From: an uncultured Nitrososphaeria archaeon
GTDB taxonomy: Archaea > Thermoproteota > Nitrososphaeria_A > Caldarchaeales > Wolframiiraptoraceae
Assembly: GCA_964555135.1 (NCBI GenBank)
Contig: CAZKRR010000003.1
Span: 1-40,917, forward strand
DNA length: 40,917 bases
Direction of reading: 5' to 3'
The notes beneath the pieces are model-generated. The model was given only the letters and a program-made list of their open reading frames with translations, ran no database searches and had not been told where the DNA came from. Made by a program: the position numbers and the translations under genes. Shown one piece after another: positions 9,647 through 37,295 of the stretch; position 1 is the stretch's first letter; each line of letters opens with the position of its first letter.

Positions 9647-10921
9647 GTGAGAATGATGTCGGCTACGAGTAGTAGATGGAGGATTTTAGCGTATCTGGTC
9701 ATAGGATTGCTAATCGGGATCGCTGTAGGATATGCTCTTTCACTTGTTATCGTTCCAGCAGCACCTGCAACCGTAGCAGTCAAAGAGTATACTATCGGCA
9801 TGATAGCAGACTTGACGGGGGAAGGAGCAGATTACGGTATTGAAGTTAGAGATGCAGGCATCTTAACAGTTGAAGAAATAAATAGCTTCTTCACAGACAA
9901 TAAGATACCTGTGCGTCTTAAGCTGGAAGTTGAAGATTCTAAGACTACCGTTGAGGGGGCTGTTTCAGCTGCCCAGTCTCTGGGCGGTAAAGGTATAAAG
10001 ATCATAGTTGGTCATCTATGGAGCGGTCAGGCCAACGGCATCAAGAGCTACATAGATTCTCATAAGATATTCACTGTAAGTACTTCTTCAACTTCTCCAA
10101 TGCTATCGATCCCGAACGACTATCTATTTAGAATGCAGGCGCCGGACAGCATCCAAGGTAGGGTTCTTGCAAACCTAATATGGAAGCTAGGATACGGCAA
10201 AGTCGCAGTAATATATAGAAATGATCCGTACGGTTCTGGGGTATACAAGTACTTTGATGAGGAGTTTAAGAAGCTTGGCGGTACAATAAAGTCTCTAGCT
10301 TATACTCCAGACTTACCTGACTACTCAAGCGAAGTCCTGCAGCTAAGCAGCATGGTTAAGGAGCTCGGCGGAGCAAACACCGCAGTCCTCATCATAGCTT
10401 TCAACTATGAAGCGATTAAGATGTTTGATAAAGCTCGGTTAGACCCTACATTGTCGAATGTACAATGGTTTTCAAGTGAGTCTTTGAAAGGCCCAGGCAT
10501 ACTTCCGCCAGCCGGCCCCCCAGAAGTTGCTGATTTTCTAGTTAAAGTGAGGTTGACTGGGACGTATCCAGCTTCATTAACAGAAACAGAGCTAATGAAG
10601 AAATTCGTAGAGAAATTCAAGGCAAGATACGGTAGAGAACCGAAAGCATATGGAGCCTACACGTATGATGCACTATGGGTCGTAGCTCTCTGCCTCTCAG
10701 CAGCGGGATCCGAAGACCCAGACACTATAATGAAGCTATTCTACAACCTAGCATCCAAATACACTGGTGCAACCGGTCCGACAGCCCTTGACTTAAACGG
10801 TGACAGAGCATTACAGGATTACCAAATATGGGAAGTAAAGAAGCTTGATGGAACCTACGACTTCAAAGTTATAGGAGGATGGAATGGAGCAGCAAACGAG
10901 CTTATAATCTCAAGCCAGTAA
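9647..10921 (+). CDS. LIV/HAAT-family ABC transporter substrate-binding protein
   Basis: N-terminal membrane anchor; YTIGMIADLTG, VEDSKT, SSTSPMLS, YLFRMQAPDSIQG, DPYG and AYTYDALW: type I periplasmic binding fold. Confidence 0.9.
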   Translation: MRMMSATSSRWRILAYLVIGLLIGIAVGYALSLVIVPAAPATVAVKEYTIGMIADLTGEGADYGIEVRDAGILTVEEINSFFTDNKIPVRLKLEVEDSKTTVEGAVSAAQSLGGKGIKIIVGHLWSGQANGIKSYIDSHKIFTVSTSSTSPMLSIPNDYLFRMQAPDSIQGRVLANLIWKLGYGKVAVIYRNDPYGSGVYKYFDEEFKKLGGTIKSLAYTPDLPDYSSEVLQLSSMVKELGGANTAVLIIAFNYEAIKMFDKARLDPTLSNVQWFSSESLKGPGILPPAGPPEVADFLVKVRLTGTYPASLTETELMKKFVEKFKARYGREPKAYGAYTYDALWVVALCLSAAGSEDPDTIMKLFYNLASKYTGATGPTALDLNGDRALQDYQIWEVKKLDGTYDFKVIGGWNGAANELIISSQ

Positions 10922-10990
10922 GCCCAGCTAATTTTAAACTTTATTTTTTATTCTCATTCAGTATTACATCGGATCAAAGGATGGTGGATA

Positions 10991-11929
10991 ATGATAGACC
11001 TTCTCCAAGCAGTAATTTCAAGCATTGTTATTGGAAGTCTTTATGCTCTAACGGCATACGGTTTGACACTAACTCTCGGCTCGATTAGAATATACAATTG
11101 GGCTTATGCCGAGTATGTAACTATCTCAGCTTATGTGACTGCGCTCTTATCATCAAGGTACTCAGTAGATATCTTACTATGTTTTCCAGCAGCTATTTTT
11201 TCAGCGGTCGCGGTCTCTCTGATAGTTGACGAGCTCGTCTATAAGCCGTTAACTAGGAAAGGCTCAACTATAATCCAAGTTATGCTCGCTAGTATAGCAA
11301 TGGGGCTCTTAATAAGATACCTGATTTATATCTTTGCCTCCGTAAACAACGTAGTAATAATCAAGGCAGCTTATACCTCGAAAGCAGTAGCAAAAATAAA
11401 TGAATTAATAATTACGGACCTCGACATCTTTATTGTAGGGCTTACCATCTTTATGATGCTGGTCTTCCATTTTATAATTTCCAAGACTTTGATCGGAAAG
11501 CAGATTAGAGCCATGTGGGATAACTTCGAGCTGGCGAGATTAAGCGGTATAAAGGTGGATAGGGTTAGAAGGTTCGTCTGTATTCTTGTAGGCATGCCTG
11601 CAGGTATTATAGGGTCTCTATGGTCGATATACTCAACTATAACACCTACGTCGGGTTGGTTGCTACTGCTTCCAGCGTTTGCGGCCGTGATTGTCGGCGG
11701 CTTGGTGAGCATACCAGGCGCAATAATTGGGGGTTACTTACTGGGATTCGGGGAAAACTTCTTTATGTATATTGCTTACAAGTTTGCTGGCGTATCTCTT
11801 GCATATAAGCCATTAATAACGTTATCGATTATGCTGCTTGCATTATTCATAAGAGCAGACATAATTCCAGCCAGGTGGTTATTATCAGTTCTTACGAGAG
11901 CGGCTACTCATAGGGGTAATGGTAGATGA
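10991..11929 (+). CDS. livH: Branched-chain amino acid ABC transporter permease LivH
   Basis: GSLYALTAYGLTL...NWAYAE, GKQIRAMWDNFELARLSGI and FAAVIVGGLVSIPGA. Confidence 0.9.
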   Translation: MIDLLQAVISSIVIGSLYALTAYGLTLTLGSIRIYNWAYAEYVTISAYVTALLSSRYSVDILLCFPAAIFSAVAVSLIVDELVYKPLTRKGSTIIQVMLASIAMGLLIRYLIYIFASVNNVVIIKAAYTSKAVAKINELIITDLDIFIVGLTIFMMLVFHFIISKTLIGKQIRAMWDNFELARLSGIKVDRVRRFVCILVGMPAGIIGSLWSIYSTITPTSGWLLLLPAFAAVIVGGLVSIPGAIIGGYLLGFGENFFMYIAYKFAGVSLAYKPLITLSIMLLALFIRADIIPARWLLSVLTRAATHRGNGR

Positions 11930-12984
11930 TACCTGAGCTAATAACTCTATTCTCGACTTCTTTAACATTCTTCAGCATATACGTTATATTATCACTAAGT
12001 CTGAACCTAGAATATGGTTTCACCGGAATTCCCAATTTTGGAAAAGTATTCTTCTTCTCGCTTGGAGCATACGTTGTCGGTGTGTTTGTGCCAAGGGTAA
12101 TCCAGTTCGTTTTTAATATAAGTGAACCGGCGTGTTCAGCACTTGCCTCTACGCAGAGGATATCTATTGCCGCTCAATTTCCAATTTTAAATATAATGAT
12201 CTTCCTAGTATCTCTTATACTTTCTGGGCTTTTAGGTGCTTTCATGGGATACGTTATCTCATATCCTTCCCTTAAACTGAGAGGGGATTATCTTGCTATA
12301 AGTCTATTGATAATCGCTGAGCTTAGTAGGGTGTTTGTTAGAACTGAACCTAGCATAGTATGTGGAAATAATGGTATCGGTGGATTACCTAACCCTTTCG
12401 TCTGGATGCAGGACCCTGTACTAAAAGAGTTAACATATTCTATCTTGTCTGGAGCTATTGCGGGGGTATTCTACTTCTATATTCACCGACTGGTTAATTC
12501 GCCTTATGGGAGAGTTATTAAATCTGTAAGAGACGACGAGTTAGTTTCACAGCTTTTAGGGAAAGATGTAAAAATATTTAAAGCCCAAATACTGACTGTC
12601 TCGTCTTTTATGTCAGCTATAGCAGGGTGTTTATATGCTTTCTTCATAGGCTTCGTCTATCCCGACGACTTCATCATAGTTTGGACGATGTATGCTTGGT
12701 TGATGATGCTGCTCGGAGGTGTAGCTAACAATAAGGGTGTCATATTAGGAAGCACTGTAATGGTTGTGGTAGATAGGGGGTTGAGGCGGATACCAAGTTC
12801 CTGGTTGTCTCTTCCATTTGATGTGAGCTATCTCAGGGGGATCATATTTACAATAATCCTACTAGTGATTATTATGTGGAGGCCTAGAGGTTTGCTCCCT
12901 GAGAAACCGTTAGATACGCCTGCGAGGAAAATATTTGAAGCTCATCTTAGAAGTAAGAATAGCTTAAAAAATTCTTCATCCTAA
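11926..12984 (+). CDS. livM: Branched-chain amino acid ABC transporter permease LivM
   Basis: LSLNLEYGFTGIPNFG, LKLRGDYLAI, SPYGRVIKSVRDDE and WRPRGLLPE. ATGA overlap with livH. Confidence 0.9.
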   Translation: MIPELITLFSTSLTFFSIYVILSLSLNLEYGFTGIPNFGKVFFFSLGAYVVGVFVPRVIQFVFNISEPACSALASTQRISIAAQFPILNIMIFLVSLILSGLLGAFMGYVISYPSLKLRGDYLAISLLIIAELSRVFVRTEPSIVCGNNGIGGLPNPFVWMQDPVLKELTYSILSGAIAGVFYFYIHRLVNSPYGRVIKSVRDDELVSQLLGKDVKIFKAQILTVSSFMSAIAGCLYAFFIGFVYPDDFIIVWTMYAWLMMLLGGVANNKGVILGSTVMVVVDRGLRRIPSSWLSLPFDVSYLRGIIFTIILLVIIMWRPRGLLPEKPLDTPARKIFEAHLRSKNSLKNSSS

Positions 12985-12990
12985 TAATCC

Positions 12991-13746
12991 TTGAGTAAGA
13001 TGGGTGGTCAAGCTATCTTAGAAGTCTCAAATCTCTCTGCAGGTTATGGGAAATCACAGATACTGTATGAGCTTTCAATGTCTGTAATGAGAGACCAGCT
13101 TACCCTAGTTGTTGGTCCGAATGGAAGTGGAAAAAGCACTCTTGCTAAAGCTGTTTTTAATCTAGCATCGATATTTTCGGGAGACGTATTCTTCAAGGAA
13201 AGAAATGTGACGAAGCTGACCCCTGAAGAGAAAATAATTATAGGGATGAGGATGGTTCCACAGTTATCAAACGTATTTGAGAACCTAACTGTAAGAGAGA
13301 ATCTAGAAACAATATACTTTGCTATAAAGTCTCCCAAGAAGAACTTTGAAGATAGCTTAGACTACGTCTACTCTATCTTTCCAGTTTTAAGATATAGGCA
13401 ATATGAGAAAGTGAGAACACTGAGTGGCGGAGAGAGGCAGATGGTGGCATTAGCTAGAGTGCTTGTAGCTAAACCTGAACTAATTATTTTTGACGAGCCT
13501 ACAGCAATGCTTTCACCAGTCCTCTCTAACTTAATACTGAATAAGATTAGAGAGATTAATGAGTCGGGTGTTGCTGTATTACTAATTGAGCAAAACGTTA
13601 AGACAGCGTTAAAAATATCTGACTATGTGTACGTGTTAGTATCTGGCAGGAAAGTATTAGAAGGAGGATCAGAGAGATTCATTAACAATTTCTCTATGCT
13701 TGAAGATGCTTTCTTTGGTAAGTTTCCAAGCAGCGAATCCAGGTGA
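12991..13746 (+). CDS. livF: ABC ATPase, LivF type
   Basis: LSAGYGKSQIL, GPNGSGKST, LSGGERQMVALAR, DEPT and LLIEQN. Confidence 0.9.
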   Translation: MSKMGGQAILEVSNLSAGYGKSQILYELSMSVMRDQLTLVVGPNGSGKSTLAKAVFNLASIFSGDVFFKERNVTKLTPEEKIIIGMRMVPQLSNVFENLTVRENLETIYFAIKSPKKNFEDSLDYVYSIFPVLRYRQYEKVRTLSGGERQMVALARVLVAKPELIIFDEPTAMLSPVLSNLILNKIREINESGVAVLLIEQNVKTALKISDYVYVLVSGRKVLEGGSERFINNFSMLEDAFFGKFPSSESR

Positions 13747-14513
13747 TATACGTGTCCGTAAACCTGCTAATGGTTAAAGAGGTCACAAAAAGCTTTGGTG
13801 GGTTAAAAGCTGTAAATAACGCGTCTCTAGAGGTAAAAGAAAAATCAATAGTAGGACTTATCGGTCCCAACGGCTCGGGAAAGACAACATTGTTTAATCT
13901 GATTAGTGGGGTTTTGTATCCGGATTGTGGACAGATAATCTTCAGGGGTTTGAGGATAGACAGACTCCCCCCTCATGAACGCTTTAGACTAGGGATATGC
14001 CATGCACTACAGATACCCAGAGTGTTTAAAGGTATGACTGTATTAGAGAACAGCATGCTGCCTCTGAAGGGTCAACATGGTGAAAGGTTCCTGTATGCTC
14101 CGATGAGAAGTAGATGGGCTCGCCAAGAAGCTGAAAATGCTCAGAGAACACTCTCCATCTTAGATGAAGTCCGCCTATGTGATTTCTACAACAAATTTTC
14201 ATCGGAGCTCTCTGGTGGGCAGATGAAGCTCTTACAGTTGGCCAGGACCCTCTCAGGTCAGCCTATACTGTTTCTACTAGATGAGCCGGGAGCCGGAATA
14301 GCCCCATCTCTAGCCAAGGAGTTATTTAGCAAGATCGTTACAATTAGAGAAGAAAAAGGTGTGAGTTTCTTCATAATTGAGCATAGACTAGAATTATTGT
14401 TCGACATCGTAGACAAAGTCTACGTAATGAATAGAGGAGAGATTATAGCGGAGGGGACGCCGGACGAGGTAATCAACGATCCTAAAGTTAAGGAAGCATA
14501 CCTAGGAGGTTAA
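13743..14513 (+). CDS. livG: ABC ATPase, LivG type
   Basis: KSFGGLKAV, GPNGSGKTT, LSGGQMKLL, DEPGAG, IEH and the C-terminal DPKVKEAYLG. Confidence 0.9.
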   Translation: MIYVSVNLLMVKEVTKSFGGLKAVNNASLEVKEKSIVGLIGPNGSGKTTLFNLISGVLYPDCGQIIFRGLRIDRLPPHERFRLGICHALQIPRVFKGMTVLENSMLPLKGQHGERFLYAPMRSRWARQEAENAQRTLSILDEVRLCDFYNKFSSELSGGQMKLLQLARTLSGQPILFLLDEPGAGIAPSLAKELFSKIVTIREEKGVSFFIIEHRLELLFDIVDKVYVMNRGEIIAEGTPDEVINDPKVKEAYLGG

Positions 14514-27799: not shown

Positions 27800-29170
27800 A
27801 TGCCACCTATAACTATATCTATTATTGGTGCTGGGAGTGTGGTATTCACTGGAAGGCTTATAGTTGATTTATGTGTTACTAAGAGTTTACATGGAAGCAA
27901 CATCGTCTTAATGGATATTGATAGGGAGAGATTAGACATGATGTATAATTTAGCGTTAAGATATGTAAAAGAAACTAGTGCAAATATATCCATTAAGAAG
28001 ACAATGAATCGTAGAGAGGCTCTGGAAGAAGCGGATTTTGTAATAAATACTGTAAAGATTGGAGGATACGAGCCTATGGAGGAAGAGAGGAAGATTGCTG
28101 AGAAGCATGGATACTATAGAGGTGTAGGTGAGAGGGTTTCAGACTATTATGGAGGGATAGGAGCATACCATCAGCTAAGATTCTTCTTGGAGCTTGCAAA
28201 AGACATGGAGGAATATTGTCCCAATGCTTGGCTTATACAAGCTGCTAACCCAGTCTTTGAAGGCACAACCCTCATCCATAGACAGACCAGAATTAAAGTT
28301 GTTGGAGTATGCCATGGACACTTGGGATATAAGGAGATTGTGAAAGTTTTGAAGATGAATGAAGAAGATGTTAAAGTCTTGATGGCTGGATTCAATCATA
28401 ACATCTGGCTTAAGGAGTTCAGGTATAGAGGGGTAGATGCATACCCCATACTAGATAGATGGATAAGAGATGAAGCCCAAAACTATTGGAATAGTAGAGA
28501 ATATCTTGAGAGCCCACCATGGGTTAGTGAGCAACTCTCACCTGCAGCTGTTGAGATGTATAAGCTTTACGGTCTTTTCCCAATAGGAGATACTGTGAGA
28601 AGTGCTTCACCATGGTGGTTTCATGAAGATTTAGAGACAAAGAAGAAGTGGCTTGGACCAATGGGTGGGTTCGATTCAGAAGCAGGCTGGACTTTCTACC
28701 TCAATATGCTCAAAGAGATTCTAGAAAGTCTACGGCAAGTAGCTTCAGACCAATCCATAAAAGTAACAGAGTTTTATCCTCCTGTCTTTAGTGGCGAACA
28801 GCATATACCGCTAATCGATGCTCTAGTGAATGATAAACAGACAATTCTCCAGTTGAATATACCTAATAATGGCATAATATCTGGTATACCCGACAATGTG
28901 GTGGTAGAGGTTCCAGCTATCGTTGATGGTGGAGAGATAAAAGGAATCCACATAGGCTCTCTTCCCAAGAAGATCATGTTATTCAATATTATTCCTAGGA
29001 TGCTTAAAATGGAGCAGATCTTGCATGCATTCCTTCAGGGCGACAAGACTTCTTTAGTCCTCATGATTGCAGAAGACCATAGGACAAAGACATTTGAACA
29101 AGCACGCAATGTAGTTGAAGAAATATTAAGCCTACCTTGGAATAAAGAAGCGGCAGCCCATTATAGGTGA
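27800..29170 (+). CDS. Glycoside hydrolase family 4 (NAD+/Mn2+-dependent alpha-glucosidase / alpha-galactosidase)
   Basis: IIGAGSVVF, LMDID, ADFVINT, ANPVFEGTT, GVCHGH, AGFNHNIW, SGEQHIP and VVEVP. Confidence 0.93.
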   Translation: MPPITISIIGAGSVVFTGRLIVDLCVTKSLHGSNIVLMDIDRERLDMMYNLALRYVKETSANISIKKTMNRREALEEADFVINTVKIGGYEPMEEERKIAEKHGYYRGVGERVSDYYGGIGAYHQLRFFLELAKDMEEYCPNAWLIQAANPVFEGTTLIHRQTRIKVVGVCHGHLGYKEIVKVLKMNEEDVKVLMAGFNHNIWLKEFRYRGVDAYPILDRWIRDEAQNYWNSREYLESPPWVSEQLSPAAVEMYKLYGLFPIGDTVRSASPWWFHEDLETKKKWLGPMGGFDSEAGWTFYLNMLKEILESLRQVASDQSIKVTEFYPPVFSGEQHIPLIDALVNDKQTILQLNIPNNGIISGIPDNVVVEVPAIVDGGEIKGIHIGSLPKKIMLFNIIPRMLKMEQILHAFLQGDKTSLVLMIAEDHRTKTFEQARNVVEEILSLPWNKEAAAHYR

Positions 29171-30474
29171 TTACTCTGTCTAAGTTAACTTCTTTAAAGT
29201 ATGCATGGTTTGTTGCCATAATACTATTCCTCTTTAGAACCTTCCATGAAGCAGACATCTACATTATCTCAGTAGTTCTCCCCCAGATATTAGAAGAATT
29301 TCAGATAACCTACATTCTCGGAGGAGCATTATTCACAGCAACCACTATCTTATCAGTAGTATTCTATCCAGTATGGGGATACTTATTTGACAGATACTCT
29401 AGAAGATTACTGATCACTCTATCAGGAATACTTTGGGGTTTAACGACATGGCTTAACACTCTTCCCAGAACTTTAACAGGATTCTTTATAACTAGAACTT
29501 TAACGGGTGTTGATAATACTCCTCCAGCAGGTATTCACAGTCTTCTTAGCGATTACTTTCCACCTAAGAAGAGAGGTAAGCCATTCGGCTTGATAAGTGC
29601 AGCAAGTGCTTTCGGAGCATTAACAGGTACGATCGTAGGTGTAACGATAGGATACGCATATGGCTGGCGTTCATTATTCTTCTTAACAGGAGGATTAGGA
29701 ATATTATTGGCTGTAGCTGTTTACTTCTTTGTTAAGGATATTCCTAGAGGAAGCTCTGAGCCAGAACTTTCAGGTCTTGAGTTAAGAGAAGAACTATACA
29801 GAATAAAGGTAAGGGATTTGTTTACTTTAATCAAGAAGCCCTCGCTTCTCTTCTTAAGCTTACAAGGCTTCTTCGGAGTCTTTCCTTGGCAAGCTCTCAC
29901 AGCCTGGACGGTCACCTACCTCATCATAGAAAGAGGATTCAGCGAGCTTCAGGTAATGTTGATAATGTCTATATGGTTGATTGTAATGGTTCTAGGAAAC
30001 TTCATAGGCGGCGCTATAGGAGACTTCTTATTCTCGAGAAGCATGAGTGGGAGAGCTATCTTAGGAGCCGTAGATGTTTTTCTCTCAGCCTTAGCTATCT
30101 ACATAGTTATTATGTGGCCTACAGGAGATGTCATCGGATTCATAATCGCAGGCTCGATGGCTTGTCTAATATTTCCAATGGCTGGACCAAATGTATCTGC
30201 CAGCATAACAGACATAATGGAGCCTGAAGCTAGAAGCTCTGCAGACTCGCTACTTAGAATATTTGAAACTGCAGGCTCCTCAACAGCACCATTAATAGTA
30301 GGGTATCTTGCAGACTTGTACGGTCTAGGCCTTGCGATACTGTATGTTTCCGCCTCTACATGGATTGTTTGTGGTTTACTCTTCACAATACTAGCATTTA
30401 TCATCCGTAAGGATATAATCCATCTTAGAAGTAGGATGAAGGAGAGAGCTGAATTATTCAAGAAACTTCATTAG
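29167..30474 (+). CDS. Major facilitator superfamily transporter
   Basis: About 12 TMs; motif A WGYLFDRYSRR; SDYFPPKKRGK. GTGA overlap with the GH4 stop. Confidence 0.92.
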   Translation: MITLSKLTSLKYAWFVAIILFLFRTFHEADIYIISVVLPQILEEFQITYILGGALFTATTILSVVFYPVWGYLFDRYSRRLLITLSGILWGLTTWLNTLPRTLTGFFITRTLTGVDNTPPAGIHSLLSDYFPPKKRGKPFGLISAASAFGALTGTIVGVTIGYAYGWRSLFFLTGGLGILLAVAVYFFVKDIPRGSSEPELSGLELREELYRIKVRDLFTLIKKPSLLFLSLQGFFGVFPWQALTAWTVTYLIIERGFSELQVMLIMSIWLIVMVLGNFIGGAIGDFLFSRSMSGRAILGAVDVFLSALAIYIVIMWPTGDVIGFIIAGSMACLIFPMAGPNVSASITDIMEPEARSSADSLLRIFETAGSSTAPLIVGYLADLYGLGLAILYVSASTWIVCGLLFTILAFIIRKDIIHLRSRMKERAELFKKLH

Positions 30475-31969
30475 CTGAGATTATCTCTCTGTATGTATAG
30501 TAGCTTCTCCTCGGCTTCCTCTCCTTAGTCTGCATATCTACACTACATAATCCAAACTTCATCTTGAAACCTCTAGCCCATTCATAGTTATCAATTAATG
30601 CCCAGTGGAAATATCCTCTAACATCTACCCCATCTTCCATTATGACCTTCTCTAAGACCCTTAGATGGTCTACAATAAACTTAGGCCTTAAAACATCTTG
30701 TGAATCAGCGACTCCGTTCTCAGTTACGTAGAGAGGCTTATTAAACTTCGCCATAAGCTTTAAAGCTGAAGCTAAACCGATTGGATAGATCTCCCAGCCA
30801 AAATCTGACGTAGGATTATGATCCAATGAAGAACTGTTAGGTTCACATTTATTTCCATATCCATCGACAATTTCTGGAACGGCTGGGATACCTGCAAAGA
30901 TCCTCGCAGTAATAGATTTCTTTCTCTTAACAACATTCCTACTATAATAATTAACACCTATCCAGTCTATTCTTCCACGGATTGAGCTGTCAGATTCTTT
31001 ATCATCAATCCTCATGTTAAGGTTTTGGTCTAGCCATCCATTACAGATTGCTTCCATCAAGAACATGTTATGTATGTGGTTTGAGATTAGGCTAGCTTCA
31101 ACGTCTTTAGATTTATCATAGGGCTCTATAGGTGTTATGTTTAAGATTATTCCAACTTCAGCTGGGTTACCGCTAGTTTTATCTGCTCTAATATTGTCAA
31201 AATGTTTTATCGCATCATATGCTCTAGCATGAGCTACAGCCAGATTAGTTAAGCATTCCTTGAAGAATTTAAAATTATTTAGACTAGGTGGGAAGCCCCA
31301 CTCTGGGAAGAGGTAGCCTGCCTCTGCTACTATGTTTGGCTCATTTAAAGTTACCCAATAATCTACAAGGTCTCCGAGCTTCCAAGCCATGTATGCAGCA
31401 TATTTCCAGAATTCAATGATCGTATCTTCATCAAGCCAGCCTCTTGGACCAACTCTACCCTTAGACTCCTTAACATTCAATGGGTTATGTATCCATAAAG
31501 GTAGGGTGAAGTGGTTTAAGCAGATAATAGGCTTCATACCTTTAGAGATTACGTCTAGTATAATCTCTCTGTAATGTCTTAATGCATTTGTATCAGCAAT
31601 CCTATCTAATTTCTCTAAGAAGCTTTCTCCCCCAGTAATACTTGAGATCCTATTGAATTCATTTCTTCTAACTTCAACTTTAACTTCACGTGTTGAGTTT
31701 GGGAAAATCCTGCTCCACTCAATCCCCATTCTATAAGCATTTAACCCAAGCTGGCTTGCTAGAATATGGTCTCTCTCATATAAATGCCAGTAGTTAGGAC
31801 CATCCTCCGGTAGATGTCCACTTACAATCCCGCTTTCAATATTATATCTATCGTGGACCCAGACAAACCAATCAGTATTCTCATCTAACCCTCTCCTAGA
31901 GGGATCACCCATCTCAAACTGAAAACCACTCTCAGACACACCCCAAAGAAAATTTTTCGGAAAAGGCAT
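30458..31969 (-). CDS. bgaS: Glycoside hydrolase family 1 beta-galactosidase / beta-glycosidase, archaeal BgaS/LacS type
   Basis: FPKNFLWGVSESGFQFEMG, IEWSRIFP, TLNEP (acid/base), YVTENG (nucleophile) and DNYEWARG. Confidence 0.92.
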   Translation of the reverse strand: MPFPKNFLWGVSESGFQFEMGDPSRRGLDENTDWFVWVHDRYNIESGIVSGHLPEDGPNYWHLYERDHILASQLGLNAYRMGIEWSRIFPNSTREVKVEVRRNEFNRISSITGGESFLEKLDRIADTNALRHYREIILDVISKGMKPIICLNHFTLPLWIHNPLNVKESKGRVGPRGWLDEDTIIEFWKYAAYMAWKLGDLVDYWVTLNEPNIVAEAGYLFPEWGFPPSLNNFKFFKECLTNLAVAHARAYDAIKHFDNIRADKTSGNPAEVGIILNITPIEPYDKSKDVEASLISNHIHNMFLMEAICNGWLDQNLNMRIDDKESDSSIRGRIDWIGVNYYSRNVVKRKKSITARIFAGIPAVPEIVDGYGNKCEPNSSSLDHNPTSDFGWEIYPIGLASALKLMAKFNKPLYVTENGVADSQDVLRPKFIVDHLRVLEKVIMEDGVDVRGYFHWALIDNYEWARGFKMKFGLCSVDMQTKERKPRRSYYTYREIISANEVS

Positions 31970-32413: not shown

Positions 32414-32884
32414 ATGGATTGTGGGCTTCTCATACTATTTATTGGAAATTCTTTGTTTAGGGATGATAGAATAGGTCTTATAGTGGGAGAGAAGCTAAAG
32501 CCGATTCTTGAGCATGAAGGATTCCATGTTGAAGTCCTGGATAAGTCCGGTCTCTCTCTGATAGATTATATTGAAGGTAGAGAGTTAGTCATAATAGTTG
32601 ATAGTATCATAACATCAGAACATCAAGTAGGAGAAGTAGTAGACGTAGACCTAAATAAACTAGAAAGCTGCTCTGTGTGGAGCCCCCACTATATGGGTCT
32701 ACCTGAAACATTGAGGGTTATGGAGGAGTTAGGTATACCTAAGCCGGAGAAGCTATACGTAATAGGAATAGAAGTAGTAGATGTCTACACAATCTCAGAA
32801 GAAATCTCAAGAGAATTAGAGGAGAGGCTAGATGAGATATCAAGTAGAGTCTACGAAATGATAAAGAGTAAACTGTATAAGTAG
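32414..32884 (+). CDS. [NiFe]-hydrogenase maturation protease (HyaD/HycI family)
   Basis: IGNSLFRDDRIG, IIVDS, SPHYMGL and VIGIE motifs. The ATG at 32414 is preceded by GAGGTG, a better start than 32321. Confidence 0.9.
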   Translation: MDCGLLILFIGNSLFRDDRIGLIVGEKLKPILEHEGFHVEVLDKSGLSLIDYIEGRELVIIVDSIITSEHQVGEVVDVDLNKLESCSVWSPHYMGLPETLRVMEELGIPKPEKLYVIGIEVVDVYTISEEISRELEERLDEISSRVYEMIKSKLYK

Positions 32885-32941
32885 TGTATATCACATGCAT
32901 AATCTAAGTTAGTGTTATTAGTTATCTGCTCTATAGAGCTA

Positions 32942-33298
32942 TCAGTAGACTATAGTTTTATCAAATCTTTTATTTGAGAGAGTAAACTGGATGATTATTC
33001 TAGGGATAGTTAGTATAAACCCCCATACTGTAAAGACTGTTGCCGTCATTAAACCTCCAACCATAGTCATCTCATGAAGCATTACTGGGATATCTGCTGG
33101 GTTGGCCATGGCTGTTAGGAAAGGTGGCCACGGAACTACTTCACCATGCCAGAAGTGTTCTACTGCTAGTAGAGCTGCTCCACCCCATAAGAGTGTATTT
33201 AAAATACCTAGTTTTAGTTTTTCAATCTTTCTGGTAAATGTTTTCTGGACTAGTGTTGTTATTACTGCTATTATCATAGGTGTTATGAAGCATGCCAT
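32942..33298 (-). CDS. Small 3-TM membrane protein of unknown function (His/Glu/Cys-containing)
   Basis: 118 aa. MACF N-terminus, LLWGGAALLAVEHFWHGE and MLHEM; GAGGAAG upstream. Confidence 0.8.
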   Translation of the reverse strand: MACFITPMIIAVITTLVQKTFTRKIEKLKLGILNTLLWGGAALLAVEHFWHGEVVPWPPFLTAMANPADIPVMLHEMTMVGGLMTATVFTVWGFILTIPRIIIQFTLSNKRFDKTIVY

Positions 33299-33315
33299 CT
33301 TTCAGTCTTCCTCTG

Positions 33316-33344
33316 GTAACACCGAAAAGTTAAATAATTGTTAC
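33316..33344. promoter_or_regulatory. Putative NikR-type operator in a divergent promoter
   Basis: Perfect GTAACA-N17-TGTTAC inverted repeat enclosing GAAAAG-TTAAATAA (BRE/TATA, 28 nt before ATG 33366); nikR lies 0.6 kb away. Confidence 0.6.
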
Positions 33345-33365
33345 TAATAAACCTTTCTGAAAAAG

Positions 33366-33659
33366 ATGTGGCTATTAATACTGCTTTTCTCAGCAACTAT
33401 GACGACAGCATTCTGGTATTCTAAAGCTGAAGATGATAAATACATGTTAAAATTCTTAAGCTTAATCTTCTGGGGAGCCTCAATAATGGTCTTCATAGAC
33501 CATCTAATAAGCTACATTACCGAGGGAGGAGAATTCATAGAGATAACGACCGAGTCAACCATACTAGGGTTCATTCTGGTAATCACAGCATTAATTATCT
33601 GGGAGATAGCATTACTGATAAAAGACCCGAAACAAGTAATTCGTAGGAAAATGCGATGA
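33366..33659 (+). CDS. Small 3-TM membrane protein, apparent paralog of the divergent neighbour
   Basis: 97 aa. LSLIFWGASIMVFIDH aligns with LNTLLWGGAALLAVEH of 32942..33298. Confidence 0.8.
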   Translation: MWLLILLFSATMTTAFWYSKAEDDKYMLKFLSLIFWGASIMVFIDHLISYITEGGEFIEITTESTILGFILVITALIIWEIALLIKDPKQVIRRKMR

Positions 33660-33983
33660 GAACAGCATAATTAGACATGCTCAACATCGTAAGCACGTAT
33701 TTCGGATATGGTAACTAGAGAATGAGGAAGAAACCTTAAAAATTACGATAATTCATTTTTCAATTTTTATTTTTGTAATCTTGATGTTTATAACTTGTTC
33801 TTTTGAAGACTACTCTACATATTTGCTGAAAAATGAATTAAAGAACAACTTCAGCTATGCACTAGTATACTATCATAGAGTAAAACGAGGTTTTTCAAGC
33901 TCTTATGATTGCTATGCTTCATCTGTCATCCCCAACCTTCTTGGCATTCTTTATCCGTATTGCTTATATCATACTGTAAGTGA

Positions 33984-34421
33984 GTGAGTCTCGATGCAGA
34001 AATGAAGTATTCTAAGAAAACTATTAAGACAGGAGTCTCGTTTCCATCCGAACTCTTAAGAAACTTTGACAGAATCTTGAAAGAGATAAGTATATCTTCA
34101 AGGTCTCAAGGTCTCCAGGAAGCTATAAGAGCTTTCATATCAATAAATACTTGGAGGATTAGTGGAGAGGAAAGTGTAGCTGGAGCTATACTAGTACATT
34201 ACTCCCATGATGTTAAGGGTCTCGAAGAAGAACTAACAGATATCCAGCATGACTTCATAGACATCATACCATCAGCTCTCCACCTACACTTAACAAGAGA
34301 AGACTGCTTACTAGTAATAGTTGTAAAAGGAGTAGCATCTAGGATTAGAGAGTTAACAGAAAAAATTAGAAGTTTAGGAAGGATTAAACAGCTTACGCCG
34401 ATTCTCACACCAATCTATTAG
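33984..34421 (+). CDS. nikR: Nickel-responsive regulator NikR
   Basis: RHH N-terminus (GVSFPSELL..FD...SRS...EAIR); the Ni ligands QH...HLH....DC are all present. Confidence 0.9.
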   Translation: MSLDAEMKYSKKTIKTGVSFPSELLRNFDRILKEISISSRSQGLQEAIRAFISINTWRISGEESVAGAILVHYSHDVKGLEEELTDIQHDFIDIIPSALHLHLTREDCLLVIVVKGVASRIRELTEKIRSLGRIKQLTPILTPIY

Positions 34422-34442: not shown

Positions 34443-35114
34443 CTAGACTTGATAAGCTTCTCCAGGCTTCAACACAACTACTTTAACTCCTCTAACCTTA
34501 ATTTTCCTCAGTTCACGTTTAAATTCTTCTGGGTCCTGCTTTATTACATCGAAAGTATTGTAGTGCATTGGGATGACAACCTTAGGTTTTACTAAGGCTG
34601 CTGCTAATGCTGCCTCTCTCGGCCCCATCGTGTAGAATCCACCGATTGGTAGTAGAGCTATTGAAGGCTTGTATAATTGCCGGATTAACCTCATATCATG
34701 AAAAACTGTTGTATCTCCTGCATGGTATATGCTGGTCTTACCATCTGATAAAACTACCCCGCATGGGTTAGAAGACATAGAATGGAATGCTGGAGCCAAG
34801 GTGATGGATAACCCATCTATCTTAACCGTCCCACCAATATTCATTCCAATACAATTCTGTACTCCTTCGCTTGAGGCTTTATTGGCTGTTTCATATACCG
34901 ATATTATCGTAGAGTTATGCTTTTTCGCTATCTCAATAGAGTCTCCAAAGTGGTCTCCGTGATCATGTGTAATAACAATAACATCTATATGTTGAAGGTC
35001 TTCAGGCTTCGATGGGGACAGGGGATTCTCTTTCAAGAATGGATCAATTAAAACTCTTTTATCAGCTATCTCTATCTCGAAAGCTGCATGACCTAACCAT
35101 TTAATGGAGACCAT
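34443..35114 (-). CDS. Metal-dependent hydrolase, MBL fold (UPF0173)
   Basis: WLGHAAF, IDPF, THDHGDH, YHAGDT, LLPIGG.YTM and PMHYNTF. Confidence 0.92.
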   Translation of the reverse strand: MVSIKWLGHAAFEIEIADKRVLIDPFLKENPLSPSKPEDLQHIDVIVITHDHGDHFGDSIEIAKKHNSTIISVYETANKASSEGVQNCIGMNIGGTVKIDGLSITLAPAFHSMSSNPCGVVLSDGKTSIYHAGDTTVFHDMRLIRQLYKPSIALLPIGGFYTMGPREAALAAALVKPKVVIPMHYNTFDVIKQDPEEFKRELRKIKVRGVKVVVLKPGEAYQV

Positions 35115-35248
35115 ACATAAAAATCTGTTAAAGAAATTATTAATAATTTCTTTAGAGTAGATGAAATTTATCTTAAAATAAAAGGATGCATGATGGAGAG
35201 TGAGAGATTTATCTTACTTTTATCCTCTCTAGAATAGGGAGGGCTGGG

Positions 35249-36616
35249 ATGGCGTTAACAGATATTACAGACTATGCAAGTAGAAGGGTTACCAGAGTAG
35301 GTGCTCACAGCCACATTAAGGGTCTTGGATTAGATGGTTTAAGAGCTAAGCCTATAGCTGATGGTCTCGTAGGGCAGATTGAGGCGCGTGAAGCTGCTGG
35401 AATAGTCGTTAAGATGATCAAGGAGGGAAAGATGGCTGGTAGAGCAGTATTGTTTGCTGGTCCCCCGGGAACGGGCAAGACTGCTATTGCTTATGGAATT
35501 GCTAAGGAGCTTGGCAAAGATGTACCTTTTGTTGCTTTAAGCGGTTCAGAGATTTATTCTTCAGAATTGAAGAAGACTGAGGTTCTTACTCAAGCCATGA
35601 GGAAAGCTATCGGCGTTAGATTGAGAGAGCAGAGACACGTATACGAAGGTGAGGTAGTCCAGCTAGACATAAAGACCCGGAAGCATCCCTATAACCCATA
35701 CCAAGAAATTCCCGACCACGTTGTTCTTGGTTTGGCAACCAAAGATGATAGAAGGGTGTTTAGAGCAGGTCAAAGTATCGCTCTCCACCTTATCCAGCAG
35801 GGAGTAGTACTAGGCGATATAATAATGATAGATGCGGAAACAGGGAAAGTAACAAAGCTTGGAAGGTCTGAGGAGGCAGCTGAGAAATATGAGATAACTA
35901 CGTGGGAGGAGAAGCCTATACCTAGACCTGCTGGACCTGTAGAGAAGAATAAAGAGTTTATCTATGTCCTAACACTTCATGACCTTGACCAGATATCCGC
36001 GCAACATCGAGGTGGAGGATTATTCGGTCTACTATTCGGCGGTCCTCCTTCCAAAGAGATAGATTCAGAGATAAGGAAAGAAGTTGATGAAATGGTTAAG
36101 AAGAGGCTTGAAGAAGGCACTGCAGAGATAATTCCAGGAGTACTCTTTATAGATGAAGTTCACCTACTAGATATAGAGGCATTCTCCTTCTTGAATGCAG
36201 CTATGGAGAGCGAGCTTGCACCGATACTCATATTTGCAAGTAACCGTGGAGTAACAAGAGTTAGAGGAACGGATATAGAGTCTCCTCATGGGATTCCTCT
36301 AGACCTTTTGGATAGATTACTAATAATCAGTACTAGGCCATATACTAGGGATGAGATTAAGAAGATTCTAGAGATAAGGGCAGCTGAAGAGAAAGTAAAG
36401 ATATCGGGTGAGGCATTAGAAGCTTTAACAGATATTGGTGTTGAATCTACACTTAGATATGCCGTCCAACTTCTTAGGCCGAGCATGGAGATAGCGAGGG
36501 GAAATGGAAAAGAAGAAATAACGGTTCAAGACGTTATTGAAGCTAAGAAGCTATTCTCTGATATAAAGAGGAGCGTAGAAGAACTTAGAAGATTTGAGGA
36601 GTTAATGTTGAAGTAG
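35249..36616 (+). CDS. TIP49 / RuvB-like AAA+ ATPase (archaeal homolog of RUVBL1/2)
   Basis: GAHSHIKGLGL, GLVGQ.EAREA, GPPGTGKT, GSEIYSSE.KKTE, PGVLFIDEVH and SPHGIPLDLLDRL. Confidence 0.95.
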   Translation: MALTDITDYASRRVTRVGAHSHIKGLGLDGLRAKPIADGLVGQIEAREAAGIVVKMIKEGKMAGRAVLFAGPPGTGKTAIAYGIAKELGKDVPFVALSGSEIYSSELKKTEVLTQAMRKAIGVRLREQRHVYEGEVVQLDIKTRKHPYNPYQEIPDHVVLGLATKDDRRVFRAGQSIALHLIQQGVVLGDIIMIDAETGKVTKLGRSEEAAEKYEITTWEEKPIPRPAGPVEKNKEFIYVLTLHDLDQISAQHRGGGLFGLLFGGPPSKEIDSEIRKEVDEMVKKRLEEGTAEIIPGVLFIDEVHLLDIEAFSFLNAAMESELAPILIFASNRGVTRVRGTDIESPHGIPLDLLDRLLIISTRPYTRDEIKKILEIRAAEEKVKISGEALEALTDIGVESTLRYAVQLLRPSMEIARGNGKEEITVQDVIEAKKLFSDIKRSVEELRRFEELMLK

Positions 36617-36617
36617 A

Positions 36618-37295
36618 ATGGGTAGGCTTATCTGTGGAATAGATGAAGCTGGAAGAGGCTCCGTAATAGGACCGATGGTTATAGCCGGAATCCTAATAAG
36701 CGAAGAAAAAATAAATGAATTGGTCAACTTAAAGGTTAGAGATTCTAAAGAAGTTAAACCGGAGGAAAGAGAAAAACTCTACGATGAGATTTTGAAGATA
36801 GCTAAGAGGTGGAAGATAATAATACTAACTGCTAAGGAAGTAGACTCAGAGACTAGAAGAAATAAGATGAGGGGGATAAACTATCTAGAAGCACAGAAAT
36901 TCATCGAGATAATCAATGAGCTTAAACCAGACATAGCTTATATTGACTTACCATCTAGAGACCCTGAAAAATTTAAATCAACAATTTATCAAATGCTGAA
37001 GCATGAATGTCAACTCATCTTAGAGCATAAAGCAGACAAAAACTACCCAGCTACGTCTGCAGCATCTATAGTAGCCAAGGTTACTAGGGATAGAGAAATA
37101 AAGAAGCTTAGAGAAAAATTTGGAGATTTCGGGTCAGGATACCCTCACGACCCTAAAACAAGAAGATTCATTAGAGAAATACTTAAGTCGAGTAGTGAGG
37201 CTCAAGAATACATTAGATTGACTTGGCAAACAATAAAAAGAGTCATGCAGACGAGACTGGAAGAGTATGGGGATGGAGTAGCTGAGGAAGGATAA
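36618..37295 (+). CDS. rnhB: Ribonuclease HII
   Basis: GIDEAGRG, DSK, HKAD, SAASIVAKV.RD, GSGYPHDP and a C-terminal PIP-box-like QTRLEEY. Confidence 0.96.
   Translation: MGRLICGIDEAGRGSVIGPMVIAGILISEEKINELVNLKVRDSKEVKPEEREKLYDEILKIAKRWKIIILTAKEVDSETRRNKMRGINYLEAQKFIEIINELKPDIAYIDLPSRDPEKFKSTIYQMLKHECQLILEHKADKNYPATSAASIVAKVTRDREIKKLREKFGDFGSGYPHDPKTRRFIREILKSSSEAQEYIRLTWQTIKRVMQTRLEEYGDGVAEEG

Follow-up and report, generated by a model that had tools for sequence, protein, structure and literature searches.

Two small membrane proteins encoded beside NikR in an uncultured archaeon as a candidate nickel uptake permease of an undescribed family

The A-B locus

The stretch of DNA analyzed here (the window) comprises 40,917 nucleotides from an uncultured Nitrososphaeria archaeon (assembly GCA_964555135.1, contig CAZKRR010000003.1). 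It carries two small genes, named A and B in this work, which are transcribed in opposite directions from a short common spacer and are located between a gene for a hydrogenase maturation protease and the gene for the nickel-responsive repressor NikR. Comparison of their sequences and genomic surroundings with those of their relatives makes it fairly probable that the two products together make up a heteromeric permease for nickel uptake, under repression by NikR and of an undescribed family. The features of the locus are the following.

32414 to 32884, plus strand: HycI/HybD-type hydrogenase maturation endopeptidase (PF01750, HycI, 6.8e-11; TIGR00072, 3.9e-24)
32942 to 33298, minus strand: protein A, 118 amino acids, three transmembrane helices, starts MACFITP (open reading frame, ORF, call)
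33299 to 33365, no strand: divergent promoter region of 67 base pairs (bp) common to A and B (ORF coordinates)
33316 to 33344, no strand: candidate NikR operator, GTAACAC-N15-tTGTTAC with an AT-rich center (consensus match)
33366 to 33659, plus strand: protein B, 97 amino acids, three transmembrane helices, starts MWLLILL (ORF call)
33984 to 34421, plus strand: NikR nickel-responsive repressor (NikR_C, PF08753, 2.8e-22; NF002169, 118 bits against a cut-off of 111)

A first-pass annotation of the window had described two small proteins with three transmembrane helices each, encoded head to head across a 67-bp spacer between a HycI protease and NikR. The ORF coordinates and the Pfam and NCBIfam matches confirmed this description, and the motifs that it quoted are present in the translations (MAC, WGGAALLAVEHFWHGE and MLHEM in A; WGASIMVFIDH in B). 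The HycI-type gene is convergent with A and is the same neighbor found at the loci L003 and L004. The NikR protein, which may actually begin at the ATG at position 34002, can be aligned with Pyrococcus NikR (2bj1, 6.3e-28). The positions of the QH...LHxH...C pattern (His/His/His/Cys) are conserved in this alignment, in agreement with the earlier remark that the protein keeps its four nickel ligand positions; the role of these residues in binding nickel is one that we take from E. coli NikR.

A and B match no described protein family

The first-pass annotation recognized none of the known nickel transporter families in A or B, and the profile and structure searches led to the same result. Pfam returned no family at E ≤ 1 for either protein, with the exception of a sub-threshold match of A to MotA_ExbB (12.2 bits against a cut-off of 22.9), and there was no NCBIfam match above noise. 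In particular, neither protein matched the profiles of NiCoT/NicO (PF03824), HupE/UreJ (PF04955), CbiM/NikM (PF01891) or NikL (PDGLE, PF13190). Direct comparison by hhalign with the proteins encoded at a related Dehalococcoidia locus (L075) gave a probability of only 0.5% for the A profile against NikM and of 0.2% for the B profile against NikL. Profile searches of the PDB found nothing for A and two chance matches to antibody Fab chains for B. The AlphaFold model of A reached a mean predicted local distance difference test (pLDDT) score of 86.4, and Foldseek searches of the PDB with this model and with that of a natural A-B fusion, described below, produced 0 matches at E ≤ 0.001 and a best template-modeling score of about 0.34. 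The library searched presumably contains S-component structures of the energy-coupling factor (ECF) transporters (RibU/ThiT/BioY/NikM2-type), and the S-component fold was not detected for the A or A-B fusion models. The Protein Atlas holds only unnamed "hypothetical protein" clusters for the family. Full-text searching of the literature found no description of the A or B proteins; supplementary tables lie outside the scope of such searching, and an earlier passing mention is possible.

The family is large and widespread. A word-indexed search found 1586 clusters of A at 90% identity, all of them unnamed or "hypothetical", and 49 of B. A profile built from 71 A sequences matched at least 564 clusters at 50% identity (E ≤ 0.001), of which 368 scored 1e-10 or better, and relatives of A were found in at least 583 stretches of a one-genome-per-species collection. 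The archaeal carriers among the matches listed are Bathyarchaeia, Caldarchaeales/Aigarchaeota, Thermoplasmata, Desulfurococcales, Archaeoglobi, Methanomethylicia and Micrarchaeota, and the bacterial carriers among them include Lachnospiraceae, Ruminococcus, Roseburia lenta, Gordonibacter, Dehalococcoidia, Synergistaceae and Moorellales.

Conservation is unusually high for small membrane proteins, with a mean column identity of 67-68% for A and B across archaeal phyla. In 71 homologues from both domains, the invariant residues of A are C3, F4, P7, E47, H48, W50, H51, E53, P59, L61, T62, E76, G81 and W92. Those of B are L31, M41, D45 and W79, accompanied by the near-invariant WY17-18, WG36-37 and DP87-88; in archaea, D45 is followed by a histidine. 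The counts of basic (K+R) and acidic (D+E) residues in 71 homologues of each protein indicated the same topology for both, namely three hydrophobic helices with loop 1 and the C-terminus inside and the N-terminus and an acidic loop 2 outside. Two interrupted copies were also seen. In a metagenome-assembled genome of the Archaeoglobaceae (L022, 7712-8084), A and B are both broken by stops, leaving 27 and 52 open amino acids, respectively, which looks like a decayed copy or assembly errors. Another genome carries, besides an intact A elsewhere, a second A copy broken by two TGA stops (G045:C12:187640-187973).

A and B are encoded together and are fused in some lineages

Eighty related A loci were retrieved from the one-genome-per-species collection, and together with the window they make up the 81 loci referred to below. 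A gene for B adjoins A in 78 of the 80 related loci, as determined by tblastn. The two misses are L038, in which the contig ends 46 bases past A, and the Gordonibacter locus L068. The arrangement of the genes is A followed by B in 59 loci, B followed by A in 3, and divergent in 16 and in the window. The gene order varies while the pair is retained, which argues that selection keeps the pair together and not one particular operon layout.

The profile search with A also identified longer homologues, 13 of which were fetched. Eight of the 13 consist of A fused to a B protein that lacks its first transmembrane helix. In one of them, P0197, residues 155-229 match B positions 20-94 with a probability of 99.4% (E = 1.2e-21, hhalign); the other seven were assigned by eye and from their rows in the alignment used for modeling. 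The fusion genes are genuine: the cluster represented by P0190, for example, has 19 members from many contigs, including two proteins from Eubacterium metagenome-assembled genomes. The fusion connects the C-terminus of A, predicted to lie inside, to the second helix of B, which starts inside, and it agrees with the topology deduced from the K/R counts. The model of P0197 (pLDDT 88.7, predicted template-modeling score 0.80) is one confident unit. It was built from an alignment of the 8 fusions and 71 B rows minus their first 20 residues, so that its A half rests on 8 rows. A prediction of the complex of separate A and B scored 0.17, below the mark, and is evidence neither way.

The first-pass annotation had proposed that the two proteins act together, and conserved co-occurrence combined with natural fusion is the pattern to be expected if A and B form a heteromeric complex. 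It had also called them paralogues. This part is plausible, given that similarity was detected (BLASTP E = 0.001 at 19% identity; hhalign probability 36.8%, E = 3.6e-4; superposition of B rows on A columns by MAFFT; a match of the B profile to an A ORF at 5.4e-4), but the similarity is weak and the paralogy is not secure.

One longer candidate was set aside. P0170, a protein of 360 amino acids encoded on a 1159-bp contig, combines an A-like segment with phage baseplate-J domains, and it is probably a gene-call or assembly chimera. It occurred once among the 524 candidates that a word-based search for longer A homologues yielded; only the profile search detected the fusions.

A candidate NikR operator in the common promoter region

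The spacer between A and B contains the inverted repeat GTAACAC-N15-tTGTTAC at 33316-33344, the sole match in the window, where 0.02 were expected. The NikR signal derived in a comparative study is GTGTTAC-N13/14-GTAACAC upstream of nik(MN)QO operons, and the reversed form GTAACAC-N13/14-GTGTTAC was found as well (Rodionov et al. 2004, PMC545781). The spacer thus carries a close match to the published box, and the NikR control suggested by the first-pass annotation gains support from sequence comparison. An inverted repeat that matches the operator consensus and lies in the promoter region is what would mark A and B as members of the NikR regulon.

The 160 bp preceding A in each locus were searched for NikR-type boxes, with up to 2 mismatches and a spacer length of 12-16. 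A box was found in 21 of the 81 loci, versus 13 of 5056 control windows taken from the same loci. The boxes are nearly always located at about -38 to -53 from the start codon of A, and 14 of the 21 loci that carry one have no recognized nickel-linked gene within 5 kb. The complete 1.64-Mb assembly to which the window belongs contains two boxes at no more than one mismatch, and the one in the A-B spacer is the only intergenic one. The second (contig C71, 6179-6204; L086, 2680-2705) lies inside an ORF of 418 amino acids and is probably a chance match. This ORF adjoins another one that was read by eye, and not by family search, as an Fe/Mn superoxide dismutase.

The AT-rich center of the box in the A-B spacer probably holds the TATA elements of both divergent promoters, in which case one NikR tetramer could shut off A and B. 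The AT-rich gap of 324 bp that separates B from nikR (33660-33983) was found to contain no NikR box, so autoregulation of nikR is not indicated. It includes short inverted repeats, such as TAAAAATT/AATTTTTA at 33737-33769, and a 68-amino acid ORF (33781-33987) that is without support.

A different element was observed in bacteria. In five Lachnospiraceae loci (L051, L054, L062, L069 and L072), a perfect palindrome with a T-rich center, CGTATGCC-N11-13-GGCATACG, is located at about -62 from the start of A, at a site without a match in Rfam. The palindrome might terminate transcription of the preceding gene or serve another regulator as its operator.

Nickel-linked genes beside the pair

ORFs were called in the 81 loci and clustered, and only the clusters with at least 2 members were annotated. 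A nickel-linked gene was recognized within 5 kb of A in 32 of the 81 loci, a lower bound since singleton neighbors were left unannotated, and either such a gene or a NikR box was present in 46 of 81. Among the regulators and cofactor genes found within this distance, NikR was present in 9 loci, LarC in 11, LarB in 9 and LarE in 8. Hydrogenase maturation genes were represented by HypE (4 loci), HypF (3), HypC (3), HypD (2), HypB/UreG (3) and HycI (3), and there were in addition UreC/UreF (2), carbon monoxide dehydrogenase (CODH; 2) and NikM-NikL-NikQ (2). The neighbors of the pair therefore span four unrelated nickel enzyme systems (hydrogenase, urease, CODH and Lar) as well as the nickel regulator. 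In the urease loci the pair sits between the genes for a urea ATP-binding cassette (ABC) transporter and those for urease, and in L071 and L007 it is surrounded by hyp maturation genes. In 4 loci a gene for a Fur-family regulator adjoins the pair. The neighborhood check suggested with the first-pass annotation thus placed A and B beside nikR, fur-family, hyp, lar, urease and CODH genes.

The same annotation had named nickel or cobalt, or else iron, as the substrate. The context indicates nickel. No cobalamin biosynthesis gene or B12 riboswitch was seen beside the pair in the 81 loci (Rfam was run on 14 Firmicute loci), and as neither a cobalamin nor an iron context was seen, the cobalt and iron alternatives are unsupported. 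The Rfam searches of the 14 Firmicute loci detected only tRNAs and one drum RNA, and no metal (NiCo) riboswitch. No regulator of the RcnR/CsoR or MerR type was seen among the recurrent neighbors.

A protein of about 137-147 amino acids with a DUF3842 domain is encoded directly upstream of A-B-larB-larC-larE in five Lachnospiraceae loci (L048, L051, L054, L062 and L069). A search of the literature for DUF3842 found only an unrelated mention.

Distribution of A in relation to nickel enzymes and importers

The class of the window was surveyed in 56 genomes with a completeness of at least 85%. A was found in 30 of these genomes and HypD in 40. Both occur together in 29 genomes; A is present without HypD in 1 and HypD without A in 11, and 15 genomes have neither. 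A was thus encoded by 29 of the 40 HypD-positive genomes versus 1 of the 16 HypD-negative ones. Within a genus represented by nine genomes, two have HypD and A occurs only in one of these two. Of the 30 A-positive genomes, 20 encode NikR, and in 8 the nikR gene is no more than about 1 kb away from A.

NicO was absent from all 56 genomes. An intact CbiM/NikM was found only in two (G030 and G031), both of them A-negative, and a relative in the same family (G028) is A-positive and has no CbiM. All 29 genomes with A and HypD lack both CbiM/NikM and NicO.

The Lachnospiraceae offered a second sample (n = 121). A was found in 14 of these genomes, and LarC in 13 of the 14 A-positive versus 64 of the 107 A-negative genomes; A and LarC are adjacent in 5 genomes.

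The window's own genome (84% complete) encodes HypC, HypD, HypE, HypF and HycI, and searches of it did not find CbiM, NicO, HupE/UreJ or LarC. Besides the window, the contigs concerned are C14, C83, C171 and C13. A [NiFe] hydrogenase large subunit was not detected in the genome, there being no PF00374 match and no DPCxxCxxH/R motif in six frames. The sole Complex1_49kDa match was considered as a candidate and rejected because it is NuoD-like and without CxxC motifs. The large subunit may be encoded in the 16% that the assembly lacks; if not, the maturation genes have another purpose.

Proposed mechanism and alternative explanations

The partnership of A and B, their nickel context, the operator match and the phyletic and displacement pattern are all supported by the computation. 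On this basis we consider it fairly likely that A and B together constitute an inner-membrane permease for nickel uptake, heteromeric and repressed by NikR; transport itself, its direction, its energy coupling, the ligands and the stoichiometry are what we infer from them. Each subunit would span the membrane three times, from an outer N-terminus to an inner C-terminus, and the two subunits would pack into one helical bundle. A is the candidate metal-binding subunit and B would be its obligate partner. The putative metal site at the outer face would include the N-terminal (Met)-Ala/Gly-Cys of A after removal of Met1, the residues E47, H48, H51 and E53 of the EHxWHGE motif at the end of the second helix, and E76, with B contributing D45 (which a histidine follows in archaea) at the equivalent position of its own second helix. 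Precedents for the N-terminal site exist, as the N-terminal amine ligates nickel in NikM and a hook made of a cysteine and the amine does so in nickel superoxide dismutase (NiSOD). Transport is probably driven by the membrane potential or a proton gradient, since no ATPase is regularly encoded beside the pair. Nickel-loaded NikR, encoded 325 bp downstream of B in this organism, would bind the only palindrome of the spacer and switch both divergent promoters off when nickel is sufficient. The imported nickel would feed hydrogenase maturation by Hyp and HycI in this organism and, in other lineages, urease, CODH or the LarBCE pathway for the nickel-pincer cofactor. The position of the NikR box and the placement of the pair in maturation clusters argue for import over export.

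Several observations weigh against this interpretation. In the class, 10 A-positive genomes out of 30 lack NikR. A is missing from 11 HypD-positive genomes, 9 of which also lack intact CbiM and NicO, so that other routes must exist or these assemblies are incomplete. Nik/Opp ABC importers could not be distinguished from peptide importers in the survey, so that any of the genomes may have another nickel importer. The surveyed genomes are mutually related, and the co-occurrence counts overstate their independence and are descriptive only. The enrichment of LarC in A-positive Lachnospiraceae is modest, and 35 of the 81 loci have no recognized nickel link, as judged from the clusters with at least two members. 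CbiQ/EcfT-family genes were found in 54 of the 56 genomes of the class, including all A-positive ones; this makes the test non-discriminating, and dependence of the pair on a shared ECF module is possible. Finally, in two Dehalococcoidia loci (L075 and L082) the gene order is fur-nikM-nikL(PDGLE)-nikQ-ATPase(nikO)-A-B, and an accessory role is conceivable.

These last two findings are the ones to be expected if A-B were a nickel capture or accessory unit of an ATP-driven module, be it a split, atypical S-component working with a shared EcfT/EcfA or an addition to a NikM-type system comparable to NikN, NikK or NikL. S-components typically have six helices, the number that A and B have together. 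This explanation is unlikely in view of the 29 A- and HypD-containing genomes, none of which has CbiM/NikM. In addition, outside L075 and L082 the other ABC ATPases near A belong to different systems, for example urea or NMT1-type transporters, or lie kilobases away, and neither the Foldseek searches with the A and fusion models nor the hhalign comparisons with NikM and NikL of L075 detected a relationship. Alternatively, A-B could handle nickel at the membrane without importing it, for instance by handing it over to maturation proteins or by sensing or buffering it. The nickel context, strong as it is, is silent on transport, the proteins are very small, and the position among the hyp genes in L071 and L007 would suit such a role. 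However, the pair accompanies four unrelated nickel enzyme systems whose soluble chaperones differ, which fits an earlier step common to all of them, such as import. A replacement importer would be expected to show the observed mutual exclusion with NikM, and the conserved polar residues map to the membrane helices, to positions next to them and to the outer loop rather than to any cytoplasmic domain. We consequently regard this second possibility as improbable too.

The two remaining alternatives concern the direction of transport and the substrate. Helices that contain His, Asp and Glu could allow small membrane proteins to move cations both ways, and efflux genes can neighbor nickel enzymes, so that A-B might export nickel as a resistance system or an overflow valve. 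This is very unlikely because NikR is at hand and its box covers the promoter region about 40 bp ahead of the start codon, the layout of nickel-repressed uptake genes such as E. coli nikABCDE. Moreover, the NiCo riboswitch and other Rfam elements were absent upstream in the 14 Firmicute loci, as were RcnR/CsoR- and MerR-type regulators among the recurrent neighbors. Location within ure, hyp and lar clusters is typical of importers, and HupE, UreJ, UreH, HoxN and LarMNQO are examples of importers encoded within nickel biosynthetic clusters. A transporter for cobalt, iron, zinc or a non-metal, with incidental nickel neighbors, deserves mention in light of the Fur-family regulator adjacent in 4 loci and of the statement, in a comparative survey, that nickel transporter families often include cobalt-specific members (PMC2667541). 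We nevertheless give it very little credence. All recurrent functional neighbors are nickel-specific, nothing pointing to cobalamin was seen beside the pair in the 81 loci, and the Fur-family genes of L075 and L082 precede a nickel-type NikM-PDGLE(NikL) operon.

Other genes of the window

The region downstream of nikR (34443-37295) includes genes for a metallo-beta-lactamase-fold hydrolase, a 455-amino acid ORF, and ORFs of 225 and 183 amino acids. Only the hydrolase was searched against families; from their translations the 455-amino acid ORF was read as a RuvB-like/TIP49 ATPase and the 225-amino acid ORF as RNase HII. The order is conserved in L003 and L004, the closest loci, and this synteny has no nickel connection. 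Within 9647-14513 and 27800-31969 the window also contains a five-gene ABC transporter of the branched-chain amino acid/urea type, whose permeases cluster with BPD_transp_2 genes of L040, two ORFs of 456 and 435 amino acids (the latter matches MFS_1; the former was not searched) and a GH1 glycosidase. None of these ABC, MFS_1 and GH1 genes is of the Nik/Opp type.

Comparison with known transporters and significance

The uptake permease proposed here would perform the task of the NiCoT, HupE/UreJ and UreH carriers, nickel import independent of an ATPase. The genes for those carriers are likewise found beside hydrogenase, urease and CODH genes and under NikR control, and NiCoT and HupE/UreJ have His/Asp motifs in membrane helices, as do A and B (HX4DH is the signature of NiCoT, and HupE has a DH motif). 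In contrast, the known carriers are single polypeptides with 6-8 helices, whereas A and B are two three-helix subunits or a five-helix fusion, and there is no sequence relation or fold match between them. The ECF systems share other traits with the pair. NikM and CbiM bind the metal through an extracellular N-terminal amine, a precedent for the invariant N-terminus of A, although the latter reads M-A/G-C-F and NikM/CbiM has an M-H motif. The NikMNQO/NikKMLQO/CbiMNQO type of system also has small membrane partners (NikN, NikL), comparable to A and B. Unlike these systems, A and B have no regularly adjacent ATPase or T component, and NikM and A show the displacement pattern between genomes described above. 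NikMNQO-type genes belong to the NikR regulon (Rodionov et al., PMC545781), and their operator consensus is the one that the box in the A-B spacer matches.

Transporters formed from two small three-helix units have precedents in the SemiSWEET dimers and in the mitochondrial pyruvate carrier MPC1/MPC2. The likeness to A and B is one of architecture only: two proteins of about 100 amino acids with three transmembrane helices, possibly paralogous, that would make up one translocation unit. The substrates are others, and no sequence or Foldseek similarity of A or B to any PDB chain was found. A further contrast is the loss of the first helix of B in some natural A-B fusions. Nickel uptake under NikR is known; the protein family and the architecture would, from what the comparisons indicate, be new.

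A broader proposal can be put forward tentatively. A and B may define a nickel permease class with two three-helix subunits that is new, ancient and widespread. Many uncultured archaea (Bathyarchaeia, Caldarchaeales, Thermoplasmata, Desulfurococcales and Methanomethylicia) and some of the Firmicutes of gut and rumen could take up nickel mainly by this route. Ni(II) might then be captured at the outer membrane face by the N-terminal amine, the Ala/Gly-Cys thiolate and the histidines of EHxWH, in a planar site that resembles the NiSOD hook or the amino-terminal Cu(II)- and Ni(II)-binding (ATCUN) motif.

Nickel-using organisms without a recognizable importer have long been noted in comparative surveys (PMC2667541). 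A 2024 survey (PMC11247825) still lists only NiCoT, UreH and HupE/UreJ as secondary carriers, together with the Nik/Opp and NikMNQO ABC systems. If our interpretation is correct, the pair would fill this gap for a large set of anaerobes, and a name could be given to well over a thousand "hypothetical proteins". With about 215 residues in total, it would also offer a minimal model for selective metal transport. Reconstructions of metabolism would also improve for uncultured archaea and for gut and rumen bacteria that rely on hydrogenase, CODH, urease or the nickel-pincer cofactor.

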